Assembly (NCBI GenBank): GCA_029245795.1
Contig: JAQWOP010000009.1
Coordinates: 11,725 to 75,724, forward strand
DNA length: 64,000 nt
Direction of reading: 5' to 3'
From: Hyphomicrobiales bacterium
GTDB taxonomy: Bacteria > Pseudomonadota > Alphaproteobacteria > Rhizobiales > TMED25
Shown here one piece after another: positions 16,823 through 57,602 of this stretch (positions are counted from its first letter, which is position 1; every line of letters begins with the position of its first letter). Below the pieces are notes generated by a model. The model worked only from the letters and a program-made list of their open reading frames with translations. It ran no database searches and was not told where the DNA came from. A program made the translations under genes and the position numbers.

Positions 16823-16898
16823 TGGTGCCGGCTGAGAGATTTGAACTCCCGACCTACTGATTACAAATCAGCCGCTCTACCAACTGAGCTAAGCCGGC
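16823..16898 (-). tRNA. tRNA-Thr (anticodon UGU)
   Basis: The reverse complement folds as a cloverleaf: acceptor GCCGGCT/AGCCGGC, anticodon loop UUUGUAA, T-arm GGGAGTTCAAATCTCTC, encoded CCA. Confidence 0.9.
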
Positions 16899-17033
16899 AC
16901 AAGATTGAAAATTATTTTAATATTTAAATCAAAAAAATAAATATTGAAAGCAAATTATTGAGTAATAGTCTTTTAAAATATAAATATGATATATTTTTAC
17001 GAATAATAATTCTATTCTTAGATATAGAAATAT

Positions 17034-17759
17034 TTAATTATGGGTTGTAATTTTATCTAAAACAATTCCAATTGCCACTGATACATTAAGACTTTTAATA
17101 TTTCCGATTGTGTCTAATTTATAAATTCCATGACATTTATTCTTTGTAAGATTTCTTATCCCCTTTCCTTCATCGCCAAAAATTAAAACTATCTTATCAT
17201 CTGCCCCAAAATTCATTTCATTGATGTTTGATAACCCATCACTATCAAACCCAATTAACCAGAAATTATTTTTTTTTAAGAATTCAAGAATATTGGAAAG
17301 GTTTGAGGAGGTTATAATATTAGTATATTCAATTCCACCGGAAGAAGATTTGGCAATTAGCCCTTCATCAAGTTGATCAAATCTATTTGTTGATATGACC
17401 GTAGTAAAATCATAGGCTGCGCATGTTCTCAGTATTGCTCCTATATTTCTTGGATCAGATATATTGTCCAATAATATTATTTTTTGTATATTTTTTATAT
17501 TTATATTATTAATTGTGTTTAATTTCTTTTGTTCACAAATTAATACTATGCCTTGATGGACAGAGCCTGGGGAAAGCTGAGAATTTAATTTTTTTGTTGT
17601 TACTATTTCATGAACGAATTTATCAAGGTTTATAGATGTTTTATTTATAATTTTTTTTCGAGCATTTTCAGTTATTAATATTTTTGATATTTTCCGATCT
17701 GGATTAGCTAAAGCATGAATGGCTGCATGAAAACCATATAATTTTATAAATTTATTCAT
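17034..17759 (-). CDS. TrmH/SpoU-family RNA 2'-O-methyltransferase (RlmB-like)
   Basis: 241 aa. The C-terminal SpoU methylase pattern is DPRNIGAILRTCAAY, LIFGDEGKGI, SLNVSVAIGI. Confidence 0.75.
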   Translation of the reverse strand: MNKFIKLYGFHAAIHALANPDRKISKILITENARKKIINKTSINLDKFVHEIVTTKKLNSQLSPGSVHQGIVLICEQKKLNTINNINIKNIQKIILLDNISDPRNIGAILRTCAAYDFTTVISTNRFDQLDEGLIAKSSSGGIEYTNIITSSNLSNILEFLKKNNFWLIGFDSDGLSNINEMNFGADDKIVLIFGDEGKGIRNLTKNKCHGIYKLDTIGNIKSLNVSVAIGIVLDKITTHN

Positions 17760-17860
17760 AACAAATGATTCCCTCTAGATTTTTATATATCTTTGGTGTA
17801 AACGTGTATAGTAATTATTATAAATTATGATTTATAATGTAAAATAAGGGCGTTGCGCAT

Positions 17861-17945
17861 GGAGGGGTGCCCGAGTGGTTAAAGGGGACGGGCTGTAAAC
17901 CCGTTGGCTTAGCCTACGTTGGTTCAAATCCAACCCCCTCCACCA
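17861..17945 (+). tRNA. tRNA-Tyr (anticodon GUA)
   Basis: Acceptor GGAGGGG/CCCCTCC, anticodon loop CUGUAAA, long variable arm, T-arm GTTGGTTCAAATCCAAC, encoded CCA. Confidence 0.9.
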
Positions 17946-17964
17946 TTTTTATAAATGGCAGAAT

Positions 17965-18038
17965 GCGGGTGTAGCTCAAAGGTAGAGCAGCAGCCTTCCA
18001 AGCTGAGGACGAGGGTTCGATTCCCTTCACCCGCTCCA
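17965..18038 (+). tRNA. tRNA-Gly (anticodon UCC)
   Basis: Acceptor GCGGGTG/CACCCGC, anticodon loop CUUCCAA, T-arm GAGGGTTCGATTCCCTT, encoded CCA. Confidence 0.9.
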
Positions 18039-18175
18039 TTAATAAAAATAATAGGTTATGTGATTTTTTTGTAGATTTTTTGAAATATTCAAACTATATA
18101 TGTAGATATTCAATTATATGTAATAAAAACTCATATAAAGTATGATTTTAAAAAACTATTAAGGTAGGAATTAAT

Positions 18176-19366
18176 ATGGCTAAAGAAAAGTTTGATCGCA
18201 GTAAACCTCATTGTAATATCGGGACGATCGGTCACGTTGATCACGGGAAAACAACATTAACTGCTGCAATTACAAAAGTATTATCAGAATCTGGTGGTGC
18301 AGAATTTTCTGCATATGACGCAATTGATAAAGCTCCTGAAGAAAAAGCTAGAGGTATTACGATATCAACTGCGCATGTTGAGTATACGACGGAAGGCCGT
18401 CATTATGCTCACGTTGATTGTCCTGGACATGCCGACTATGTTAAAAATATGATCACAGGTGCTGCTCAAATGGATGGAGCTATCTTAGTTGTGAATGCAG
18501 CCGATGGCCCAATGCCACAAACAAGGGAACATATATTGCTCGCAAGACAAGTTGGGGTTCCAGCTCTTGTGGTTTATTTGAACAAAGTTGATCAAGTTGA
18601 TGATGACGAGTTACTTGACTTGGTTGAAATGGAAGTTAGAGAATTATTAAGTAAATATGAATTTCCTGGAGATGATATTCCTATCGTAAAGGGTTCAGCC
18701 TTAGCGGCCTTAGAAGGAAAAAATGATGAAATTGGGAAGAATTCTATATTGGAGCTAATGGCAGCTGTAGATTCCTATATACCTCAGCCTGATAGGCCAA
18801 AAGATCAACCATTCCTTATGCCAATTGAAGATGTTTTTTCTATTTCAGGAAGAGGAACGGTTGTAACAGGAAGAGTTGAGCGTGGTATTATAAATGTTGG
18901 TGAAGAAATAGAAATTGTTGGCATTAAAGAAACCGCAAAAACAACTTGCACAGGCGTTGAAATGTTTAGAAAGCTTCTTGATCAAGGAGAGGCAGGAGAT
19001 AATGTAGGTGTCTTATTGAGAGGTACGAAAAGAGAAGAAGTCGAAAGAGGGCAAGTTCTTGCAAAACCTGGATCAATAACTCCACATGCTAAATTTAAGG
19101 CAAATGCCTATATTTTAACAAAAGATGAGGGTGGAAGGCATACTCCTTTCTTTAAAAATTATAGACCTCAATTCTATTTCCGTACAACAGATGTTACAGG
19201 AATTGTTTCTTTACCAGAGGGCACCGAAATGGTGATGCCTGGCGATAATATAGAAATGGATGTTGAGTTAATTAATCCTATCGGAATGGAAGAAAATTTG
19301 AGATTCGCTATTCGAGAAGGTGGTAGAACTGTCGGTGCAGGCGTTGTGTCGAAAATAGTTAAATAG
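18176..19366 (+). CDS. tuf: elongation factor Tu
   Basis: Unambiguous EF-Tu sequence ([22 protein letters not shown]). Confidence 0.98.
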
Positions 19367-19403
19367 GAAGCAAAGACTGGCACTCCAGCCATCTCAATCA
19401 TAC

Positions 19404-19479
19404 AGGAGTGTAGCTCAACTGGCAGAGCGTCGGTCTCCAAAACCGAAGGTTGGGGGTTCGACTCCCTCCACTCCTGCCA
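19404..19479 (+). tRNA. tRNA-Trp (anticodon CCA)
   Basis: Acceptor AGGAGTG/CACTCCT, anticodon loop CUCCAAA, T-arm GGGGGTTCGACTCCCTC, encoded CCA. Confidence 0.9.
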
Positions 19480-37460: not shown

Positions 37461-37832
37461 ATGGCACTTAAGGCTAAAGAGGGCACAGCCCTTGCGATAA
37501 CAAAGAACCTCAAGGTAAGTTCACAAAAACTTAATCTTGTAGCTGCGATGATACGTGGAAAAAAAGTAGATAAGGCTATCAATGATCTTCTATTTTCAAG
37601 AAAGAGAATTGCCCAAGATGTTTTAAAAACACTCAAATCTGCAATAGCAAATGCCGAAAATAATCATAATCTAGATATTGATGAATTGTATGTAAATGAA
37701 GCTTATGTTGGAAAAAATTTAGTACTTAAAAGATGGAAACCAAGAGCTAGAGGTCGTATGGGCAGAATTCTTAAACCATTCAGTCAATTAACCGTTGTTG
37801 TAAAACAATTGGAGAATGAGGAAGGTAAATAA
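37461..37832 (+). CDS. rplV: 50S ribosomal protein L22
   Basis: Sequence and conserved order. Confidence 0.95.
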
Positions 37833-38536
37833 TGGGACAAAAAGTTTCACCAGTATCATTAAGGCTTGGAATCAATAGAACTTGGGATTCACGTTGGTAT
37901 GCTGAAAAAAATGAATATCCAAAACTTTTGATGGAAGACCGAAAAATTAGGTCTTTAGTTAATGGATTAAAATCTGCTGCTGCAATATCAAAAATTGTAA
38001 TAGAGCGCCCTCATAAAAAATGTGCGGTAACAATTTATTCAGCAAGGCCTGGAATATTAATTGGAAAAAAAGGTTCAGATATTGAACTTATTAAAACAAA
38101 AATACAAAAAATTACAAATACAGATGTTTCAATAAATATTCTTGAAGTTAGAAAGCCTGAAATAGACGCTACACTTGTTGCAGAATCTATCGCTTCTCAA
38201 CTGGAAAGAAGGGTCGCTTTTAGAAGAGCCATGAAACGTTCGGTTCAGACAGCTTTAAGAATGGGAGCTGGTGGTATAAGGATTAATTGCGGCGGAAGGC
38301 TCGGTGGAGCAGAAATCGCAAGAACTGAATGGTATAGAGAAGGAAGAGTTCCATTACATACACTCAGAGCTAATGTTGACTATGGATTTGCTACAGCTAA
38401 AACAACATATGGAGCTATTGGTATAAAAGTGTGGATTTTTAAAGGTGAAATTTTAGAGCATGATCCAATGGCGCAAGAAAGAAGTATTACAGGTGGCAAC
38501 CAAGAGGGTGCCCGTTCTTCATCAAGGGCAGAATAG
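37832..38536 (+). CDS. rpsC: 30S ribosomal protein S3
   Basis: [24 protein letters not shown]. Confidence 0.97.
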
Positions 38537-50690: not shown

Positions 50691-50776
50691 GCGATCGTGG
50701 CGGAATGGTAGACGCGCAGCGTTGAGGTCGCTGTAGGGGTAACTCTGTGGAAGTTCGAATCTTCTCGATCGCACCA
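50691..50776 (+). tRNA. tRNA-Leu (anticodon GAG)
   Basis: Acceptor GCGATCG/CGATCGC, anticodon stem CAGCG/CGCTG, loop UUGAGGU, long variable arm, T-arm GGAAGTTCGAATCTTCT, encoded CCA. Confidence 0.9.
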
Positions 50777-56475: not shown

Positions 56476-56630
56476 GACTTTGATTTATAATGAATATAGT
56501 TCAAAAATTCTCTCAACCTCAACTAGGGAGTATTGTGGAAAATATAGTACTCCAATTGTTGAGTGAGTATGTTCTATAGATAATGTATAAGGTTTTTTTT
56601 TAGGACTTTTCATGGAACAAGATGCTATAT

Positions 56631-56723: not shown

Positions 56724-57098
56724 ATGGACAAAAATAATAGAAAAATCCTCATTGTTGAGGATAATAAATTAAATATGAAATTATTCAAAGACATTCTCGA
56801 GGCAGAGGATTGTTATGTTATAGAATGTTTTGATCCGATGTTTGCGATGGAAATTGTATCAACAGAATTACCAAATCTAATTTTAATGGATATACAACTT
56901 CCTAGAATATCAGGCTATGACTTAATCCAGTGGATAAAATCAGATTCAAATATTTCACATATTCCTATCATTGCCATAACTGCATTTGCTATGAAAGATG
57001 ACAAAGAAAAAATTCTTTCACTTGGATGTGAAGGCTATATGTCTAAGCCAATTTCTATGGATCCATTTATTGAAAATGTGAATAAATTTCTTAAATAA
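56724..57098 (+). CDS. divK: single-domain response regulator DivK
   Basis: Close by-eye match to Caulobacter DivK (ILIVEDNKLNMKLF, LILMDIQLPRISG, AITAFAMKDDKEKIL, GYMSKPIS). Confidence 0.85.
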   Translation: MDKNNRKILIVEDNKLNMKLFKDILEAEDCYVIECFDPMFAMEIVSTELPNLILMDIQLPRISGYDLIQWIKSDSNISHIPIIAITAFAMKDDKEKILSLGCEGYMSKPISMDPFIENVNKFLK

Positions 57099-57213
57099 AA
57101 AAACAGCTTATTATATAAGATTGTAGTTAGATTTTTCATCATTAAAAAATAAAGTAAAAAGGTATTTTTATTTAAAAACAAATACTATATAATAAGAAAT
57201 TGATATTTACAAA

Positions 57214-57330
57214 GGGTTTCCCTGCGGAGTTGCTCGGGTCCGCCGCATCTCCTGGGTCCGTAGGGTTTATGTCGTTATGTTGGTTTTCAAATTATGGCCT
57301 CCTCCATTTTTGTTAACCAACATGCGGCTA
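57214..57330 (+). ncRNA. candidate structured small RNA (unclassified); strand is tentative
   Basis: GC-rich island: 36 of 52 nt are G+C at 57214-57265 by hand count, in AT-rich flanks. Helices are 57220-57228/57257-57265, 57242-57246/57324-57328 and 57277-57285/57315-57323. The hairpin loop carries CCTCCTCC (57298-57305). There is no credible ORF. One G-T pair in the first helix is tolerated only on the + strand. Confidence 0.45.
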
Positions 57331-57434
57331 TTTAAATCAAGATAGCACAAATATAAAGATATATTGTTTTTAAAGAAGCCATTTTGAAGAAATTATAGAG
57401 GAACTGTTATAGGTTTTTGAGGACTAAATAGTAG

Positions 57435-57602
57435 TTATTTAATTTTATTTTCTTTAAAATCAACGTGTTTTTTAACAACAGGATCATATTTTTTAATAAC
57501 AAGTTTTTCTGTCATAGTACGACTATTTTTCCTTGTCACATAGAAATAGCCAGTACCTGCTGTGCTTTCTAATCTTATTTTTACGTTACCAGATTTTGCC
57601 AT
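57435..57602 (-). CDS. rpmG: 50S ribosomal protein L33 (Cys-less form)
   Basis: Not in the ORF track because it is only 55 aa. My translation is [55 protein letters not shown], which matches L33. Confidence 0.9.

Follow-up and report, generated by a model that had tools for sequence, protein, structure and literature searches.

What is encoded by the GC-rich island that interrupts the intergenic region between divK and rpmG in an otherwise AT-rich alphaproteobacterial genome? The island lies in a stretch of 64,000 nucleotides from a Hyphomicrobiales bacterium, referred to here as the window, the rest of which is the tuf/rpoBC/str/S10/spc ribosomal-protein region; five tRNA genes (Thr, Tyr, Gly, Trp and Leu) are found at 16823-19479 and 50691-50776. 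An earlier note, made from the letters of the DNA, had proposed the island as a candidate structured sRNA, mildly favoured the plus strand, and could match it to no tRNA, SRP RNA, tmRNA or riboswitch consensus. A structured, stand-alone alphaproteobacterial sRNA gene on the plus strand is supported by a match to the Rfam model RF02500, by folding and by covariation. The element is not unmatched: the RF02500 match is full-length, and the position between divK and rpmG is that of ecpR1 in Sinorhizobium meliloti. We conclude that the island very probably encodes an orthologue of EcpR1 (RF02500 Atu_C6; SmelC291/SmrC10/Sra33), a stress-linked cell-cycle sRNA. This assignment is based on the match in sequence and structure, the divK/rpmG position, two covarying hairpins and two conserved single-stranded loops. 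EcpR1 is a trans-acting sRNA of ~100-120 nt that is found in Rhizobiales/Hyphomicrobiales and has been experimentally characterised in S. meliloti (PMC4414408). By the yardstick that the earlier note had set, an Rfam match to a known family, the element is known rather than novel: it is an additional, slightly sub-threshold member of that family and no new kind of element. The features of the locus are collected in Table 1.

Table 1. Features of the divK-rpmG locus, with positions given in the 64,000-nt window
Feature	Position	Strand	Basis
divK, single-domain response regulator, upstream anchor	56724-57098	+	Structure match 1m5t
Candidate -10 region TACTATATAAT	57183-57193	+	Conserved 11-mer; contains TATAAT and overlapping CTATAT
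EcpR1-family sRNA core, SL1 and SL2	57217-57334	+	Extent of RF02500 match
SL1: 8-bp basal stem (P1), 4-nt asymmetric bulge, 7-bp upper stem, 12-nt loop	57220-57265	+	MFE fold
SL1 loop UCCGCCGCAUCU, presumed mRNA-pairing seed	57239-57250	+	Identity to S. meliloti seed
SL2: long, AT-rich, sequence-variable hairpin; P3 and one arm of P2 (the 3' one) fall within it	57271-57328	+	MFE fold, covariation
CCUCCU, the 6-nt loop at the tip of SL2, similar to an anti-Shine-Dalgarno sequence; closing pairs AUGG/CCAU	57298-57303	+	Fold
rpmG, ribosomal protein L33, convergent downstream anchor	57435-57602	-	TIGR01023, 82.6 bits

The compositional jump that drew attention to the locus is real. The earlier count of 36 G+C among the 52 nt of 57214-57265 is exact, and the GC fraction calculated in 50-nt windows rises sharply from 0.12-0.24 in the flanks to 0.54-0.64 at the island. 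Only the background had been put too low, at ~30%: GC content is 34.0% over the 64-kb window, 30.7% in the divK-rpmG intergenic region and 51% in the island itself. On the plus strand the island folds into two hairpins, SL1 and SL2, with an energy of -46.6 kcal/mol (z = -4.6) that none of the 200 shuffled sequences equals, while the minus-strand minimum is weaker (-33.6 kcal/mol, z = -2.8). Several G-U pairs of SL1 become C-A mismatches on the minus strand, which further supports transcription from the plus strand, as had been suggested. All the complementary segments listed in the earlier note are present in the sequence, namely P1 (CCCTGCGGA, 57220-57228, with TCCGTAGGG, 57257-57265), P2 (GCCGCAT, 57242-57248, with ATGCGGC, 57322-57328) and P3 (ATGTTGGTT, 57277-57285, with AACCAACAT, 57315-57323), and the 29-nt loop of P3 does contain GGCCTCCTCCA. 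P1 is part of the conserved helix of SL1, and P3 is part of that of SL2.

The Rfam search that the earlier note recommended led to the family assignment. In a permissive local scan of 57050-57480, RF02500 matched over model positions 1-113 of 113 with 56.7 bits (E = 2e-7; E = 3e-5 when the whole window is scanned against all 4227 families). This is 3.3 bits under the Rfam gathering cut-off of 60 bits, which is an operational annotation threshold and no biological feature; a scan of the window at gathering thresholds returned the five tRNAs only and missed the island. The only other families at E <= 10 in 57050-57480 were a snoRNA and a pestivirus UTR (E > 2), no further sub-threshold match at E <= 0.1 was found across the window, and ARAGORN detected no tRNA or tmRNA at the island. 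Both UGCUCgGGUCCGCCGCAUCUCCUGGGUCC and UGGCCUCCUC are conserved in the alignment to RF02500, and R1, a covariance model built for the AT-rich clade described below, has a single match in the window, at 57211-57336.

Relatives of the island were collected by scanning one genome per species for the exact SL1 core GGTCCGCCGCATCTCCTGNGTCC, which gave at least 120 matches. The matches listed come nearly all from Hyphomicrobiales/Rhizobiales, with additions from Parvibaculaceae, Rhodobiaceae, Stappiaceae and a single-cell genome of the OCS116 cluster, which NCBI taxonomy places in Alphaproteobacteria incertae sedis; no Pelagibacter is among them, and the list of GC-rich intergenic regions of P. ubique (Meyer et al. 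2009) holds no divK-rpmG entry. A SAR11 affinity of the window was rejected: among the matches listed, the named genomes closest to it belong to OCS116, Rhodobiaceae and Hyphomicrobiales, and its GC content is 34%. Three low-GC genomes (31-34%) among the matches listed, L042 (OCS116 SAG AH-326-K15), L056 (a 'Hyphomicrobiales' MAG) and L078 (a 'Rhodobiaceae' MAG, NAT146), have a window-type SL1 that is 1 nt apart, the motif UUGGCCUCCUCCAAA, and the SL2 architecture and gene neighbourhood of the window. Since these three carry the window-type SL1 and score above the cut-off (61.7-65.3 bits), they bridge the window to RF02500. Another 21 loci came from metagenomes that were scanned with a pattern specific to this clade; eight metagenome contigs with an identical DivK carry just two sRNA variants. 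Two contigs from MAGs that bear the labels Flavobacteriaceae and Actinomycetota also encode EcpR1 with L33 downstream (L069, 2113-2222, 94.5 bits; L114, 614-725, 97.1 bits), and are most likely mis-binned Hyphomicrobiales contigs.

The genomic context is in good agreement with this assignment. The upstream gene is identified as divK by its protein: the best solved-structure match, full length, is C. crescentus DivK (1m5t, E = 1.6e-37), which scores about twice any other (66 bits for the next-best receiver). In S. meliloti, ecpR1 sits between the divK-pleD operon and rpmG (PMC4414408), and the two loci share this placement, after divK and convergent with rpmG. Among the matches listed, 87 of the 103 genome loci with enough flank have an L33 gene downstream of the SL1 core on the other strand, and 67 of 73 have a receiver domain encoded ahead of it in the same orientation; in most of the GC-rich genomes listed this receiver domain is ~1.4 kb upstream, consistent with divK-pleD. 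The window locus differs from the classical divK-pleD-ecpR1 locus of S. meliloti in that pleD is absent, so that divK is immediately upstream of the sRNA, with 118 nt between its stop codon and the sRNA. The same holds across the AT-rich clade (L042, L056, L078, L129-L149), where pleD is missing and divK ends ~120-150 nt before the sRNA. In all loci of this clade divK is upstream on the same strand, and the eight-gene clpB-HIT-FemAB-like-divK-sRNA-rpmG-topA block is collinear. Protein identity to the window in this block ranges from 93% (L132) down to 48-66% (L133, L145, L146), and the RNA has therefore been retained across deep divergence. Between the FemAB-like gene and divK, the window also has a 42-aa ORF without a Pfam match (MKSPKKKPYTLSIEHTHSTIGVLYFPQYSLVEVERIFELYSL, 56485-56613, minus strand); gene calls on several independent metagenome contigs include it at the matching place.

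Both hairpins are supported by covariation. MAFFT aligned SL2 poorly (alignment A1), and the model-guided alignment A3 took its place; A3 leans towards structure, and this was checked with slid controls. With 100 of the sequences listed on the clade-model R1 alignment, 93.7% of the cells are paired, compared to 34-53% in slid controls, compensatory changes are present in 24 of 37 pairs, and none of 500 shuffles reaches any of the observed measures. Covariation is concentrated in SL2, where it affects 21 of the 22 modelled pairs and all four helices (helices 3-6). The 18 sequences of the AT-rich clade, aligned with MAFFT, give the same picture: 92.6% of cells are paired in the window MFE structure, compared to 33-53% in slid controls, and seven SL2 pairs show double changes. 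The most divergent members (L133, L145 and L146) have a wholly different SL2 stem sequence with unchanged architecture. Pairing of SL1 is 98.6-100% across relatives, and its near-invariance in these alignments is partly due to the way the family sample was gathered, with the exact SL1 core as search pattern. In the comparison across relatives that the earlier note called for, P1 and P3 come out as parts of conserved helices.

The part of the molecule that is presumed to contact mRNAs is the SL1 loop. It is predicted to be unpaired with a probability of 0.985 and is identical in the window and in S. meliloti EcpR1, where this motif is essential for gcrA/dnaA repression (Robledo et al. 2015, PMC4414408); the SL1 stems are nearly identical as well. 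The earlier note had placed its emphasis on the second loop, CCUCCUCC, and had seen in the SL1 loop merely the 5' arm of P2, whereas the validated seed of the homologue is the SL1 loop. The S. meliloti report (Robledo 2015, PMC4414408) describes a 21-nt block, C16-G36, as identical in all species; if this block is CAGGUCCGCCGCAUCUCCUGG, a reading for which the numbering is assumed, the window matches it at 20 of 21 positions. The sole difference is an A-to-G change in CUCAGG of SL1, which keeps the pair as G-U and recurs in four of the 116 other unique sequences listed (Hyphomicrobiales L034, L041, L057 and L082). A 23-nt GC-rich segment is identical across genomes of 30% and 70% GC, which argues for very strong constraint.

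The second single-stranded motif resides in SL2. The motif CCUCCUCC spans 57298-57305 and provides the lone loop of its kind in the molecule; the exposure of an anti-Shine-Dalgarno-like CCUCCU(CC) in a hairpin loop, proposed in the earlier note, is borne out by the fold and by a predicted unpaired probability of 0.999 for CCUCCU. The CCUCCU loop is invariant in 18 members of the AT-rich clade, in which SL2 is zipped up to this 6-nt loop with closing pairs (A/U)UGG:CCA(U/A). Of the 118 unique family sequences among the matches listed, all of them selected on SL1 alone, 103 contain GGCCUCCUC. Reinkensmeier et al. (2011) described the family by a conserved 5' hairpin, whose loop is UCCGCCGCAUCU, and by another hairpin that has 'extremely variable stem sequences' and UCCUCG as its loop motif. 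In the window, the SL2 loop reads UCCUCC within CCUCCUCC, 1 nt off the family motif. The anti-Shine-Dalgarno-like SL2 loop is a family-wide feature and a second conserved single-stranded motif of the RNA, a putative partner of ribosome-binding sites. In two Rhodomicrobium MAGs (L071, 467-567; L092, 3708-3817) the SL1 core is followed by a divergent second domain in which ACGGUUUCGG replaces GGCCUCCUC and a long insertion is present.

Three other readings of the island have to be weighed against these results. The alpha-r14/alpha-r35/CcsR 'cuckoo' RNAs are alphaproteobacterial trans-acting sRNAs that display C/U-rich anti-Shine-Dalgarno-like motifs (CCUCCUCCC) in several hairpin loops, and the earlier note had been reminded of them by the CCUCCU(CC) motif. 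It is the near-certain exposure of this motif and its spread through most of the family sequences listed that would suit a member or analogue acting mainly via such loops. Yet these families, which we presume are included in Rfam 15, gave no match even at E <= 10, where RF02500 is the sole credible one; there is one such loop rather than repeated ones, and the remainder of the molecule is unambiguously EcpR1. Membership of the cuckoo family is therefore refuted, and we regard action in their manner as very improbable. Still further down the scale, to the point of being negligible, is a small protein gene. The earlier note had seen no ORF longer than ~15 codons in the intergenic region, but a 38-codon TTG ORF does cross the island (57200-57316, plus strand). 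A 1-nt indel frameshifts it in L003/L004, a near-identical metagenome population, stops break the frame in all other relatives, and there is no start in L042, L078, L056 and L133; the frame is not conserved and hence not coding, and substitutions in the island track base-pairing rather than codons. We rejected the 38-aa ORF as a gene.

The third reading concerns P2, whose 5' arm is the seed GCCGCAU: as a lineage-specific variant, the 3' base of SL2 (AUGCGGC) might pair with the seed, stacked on P3, and so gate access to it. The complement that the earlier note had spotted is indeed there, perfect over 7 nt, and the genome acquired its G-rich arm in spite of a bias towards AT; as a free 5-bp duplex, P2 is worth -8.4 kcal/mol against -7.0 kcal/mol for the competing basal helix of SL2, which includes two G-U pairs, although the former figure excludes the pseudoknot loop penalty. 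Conservation of the pairing is where the proposal failed. ATGCGGC is found in two of the 118 unique family sequences listed (the window type and L003), and on the 18-sequence clade alignment P2 is complete in three members, 65.6% paired and devoid of covariation. The nearest relative, L132, has UCGAC at the 3' arm, which forms a Watson-Crick SL2 base instead, and folding P2 into a nested structure costs 9.4 kcal/mol relative to the MFE. P2 was rejected as a conserved feature and is treated here as a lineage-specific coincidence; self-masking by it seems quite unlikely, though less so than kinship with the cuckoo RNAs. The EcpR1 assignment, with two hairpins and an SL1 loop predicted to be single-stranded, is the reading that we retain.

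How the RNA is made is less clear-cut. The TATAAT hexamer picked out by the earlier note is present at 57188-57193. It is part of the conserved 11-mer TACTATATAAT. Ten of the 18 clade members have this 11-mer at a distance of 14-26 nt ahead of SL1, with a spacer in between that varies in length and sequence; conservation of the 11-mer next to a variable spacer is the pattern expected of a functional -10 element. A generic consensus scan of 57000-57500 called no plus-strand sigma-70 promoter, and a consensus -35 is absent. No intrinsic terminator was called in 57000-57500 either, and so none between divK and the sRNA or after SL2. SL2 is followed by UAUUUAAAU and not by the U run of a terminator, which makes the 3' end uncertain. 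Elsewhere in the clade, the 3' tail reads CUUUUU or CUUUUC in some members and neither in others; the terminal U-tract is a trait of the S. meliloti RNA that the window lacks, and it does not define the family. A conserved small hairpin, aaccttattggtt, is found ~60-75 nt downstream of SL2 in L042, L131, L137 and L138, between the sRNA and the rpmG stop codon, and may be the rpmG terminator.

Without a terminator between divK and the sRNA, read-through followed by processing is possible, and the same RNA might then be cut from the divK transcript, as a 3'-UTR-derived sRNA or simply as its structured 3' end. The sRNA is on the divK strand, 118 nt past its stop codon, no consensus promoter is seen in between, and in S. 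meliloti the dominant 101-nt EcpR1 species itself arises by ribonucleolytic processing, from a 171-nt primary transcript with a 70-nt leader. That organism argues the other way too, given that none of its EcpR1 is made without the sigma-70 promoter directly upstream. In the clade it is TACTATATAAT that is conserved upstream of SL1 and not the intervening sequence, and in most of the genomes listed the RNA has been kept although pleD, not divK, is upstream there. We therefore consider an origin from the divK transcript unlikely, if less so than any of the readings above. Transcription from a promoter of its own, which we favour, would start ~7 nt past the -10 element and give a predicted leader of ~19 nt, compared to 70 nt in S. 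meliloti EcpR1.

What the RNA does can be proposed from its S. meliloti homologue, for which induction by ppGpp and stress, repression of gcrA and dnaA and independence of Hfq have all been demonstrated experimentally. By analogy, the window RNA would be made from its own sigma-70-type promoter with the candidate -10 at 57183-57193, and its transcription would probably rise in stress or stationary phase via ppGpp. The 12-nt GC-rich SL1 loop UCCGCCGCAUCU would base-pair with GC-rich sites in cell-cycle mRNAs, as in the case of gcrA and dnaA in S. meliloti. Pairing would repress the target mRNAs in a Hfq-independent manner, and the expected outcome would be a delay of replication and division under poor conditions. 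Since gcrA and dnaA are outside the window, the target part of this mechanism rests wholly on homology. Within the window, the loop-target prediction advocated by the earlier note found nothing above chance: RNAduplex runs of both loops against the -120 to +60 regions of 66 ORFs were matched by 45 and 67 of 100 shuffled seeds, respectively. The seed complement AGATGCGGCGGA, with <= 2 mismatches, occurs three times in the window including the sRNA itself, compared to 1.0 expected, and nine of 100 shuffles equal this. In 288 kb of clade DNA there is a single complement of a seed 9-mer, TGCGGCGGA at 38288-38296 (plus strand) of the window. It is located inside the gene 37832-38536, which we take to be rpsC from its position in the ribosomal-protein cluster, and we treat it as a chance match. 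With so few chance complementary sites (one 9-mer per 288 kb), the AT-rich lineage is favourable for finding conserved targets.

With this assignment an unannotated GC island gains a name and a candidate function, and the range of a cell-cycle sRNA of soil rhizobia grows to include OCS116-like marine relatives, which are abundant, uncultured and seen in TARA and other ocean metagenomes, and in which stress-linked control of replication would be of ecological interest. With its curated cut-off, Rfam overlooks genuine EcpR1 orthologues in genomes of low GC content. The window copy leaves the working model of the EcpR1 family unchanged; its use lies in annotation and in following how far the EcpR1 circuit extends. 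A broader proposal can be put forward tentatively: that EcpR1 is an ancient cell-cycle brake rather than a rhizobial speciality, with its seed unchanged in streamlined AT-rich oceanic alphaproteobacteria without pleD; that its regulon could be read directly in these genomes because seed complements are rare; and that CCUCCU might serve as a second, anti-Shine-Dalgarno seed or, in the population of the window, P2 might mask the first. Taken jointly, these elements make a doubtful whole, only slightly better placed than the derivation of the RNA from divK.

Compared with known systems, the window RNA is closest to S. meliloti EcpR1, with which it shares the two-hairpin architecture, the organisation as a stand-alone plus-strand gene, a core of ~115 nt, and a second hairpin with a variable stem and a UCCUC-containing loop. 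They differ in the host, a marine OCS116-like lineage of 30-34% GC here and a soil/plant rhizobium there, and in SL2, which in the window is AT-rich, longer and more fully paired, up to the 6-nt CCUCCU loop (CCUCCUCC as opposed to CCUCCUCG in S. meliloti EcpR1). The alpha-r14/alpha-r35/CcsR RNAs resemble it in presenting an anti-Shine-Dalgarno-like C/U-rich motif in a hairpin loop; unlike them, the island has a single CCUCCUCC loop next to a UCCGCCGCAUCU loop, and its genomic context is different. To our knowledge, none of those families has a GC-rich UCCGCCGCAUCU loop. Finally, GspR of S. meliloti is reportedly a cell-cycle sRNA that targets GcrA/CtrA. If the analogy with S. meliloti EcpR1 holds, the window RNA and GspR would both act after transcription, in connection with stress, on master regulators of the alphaproteobacterial cell cycle; this is a likeness of functional neighbourhood only, since the two belong to different RNA families and different loci.
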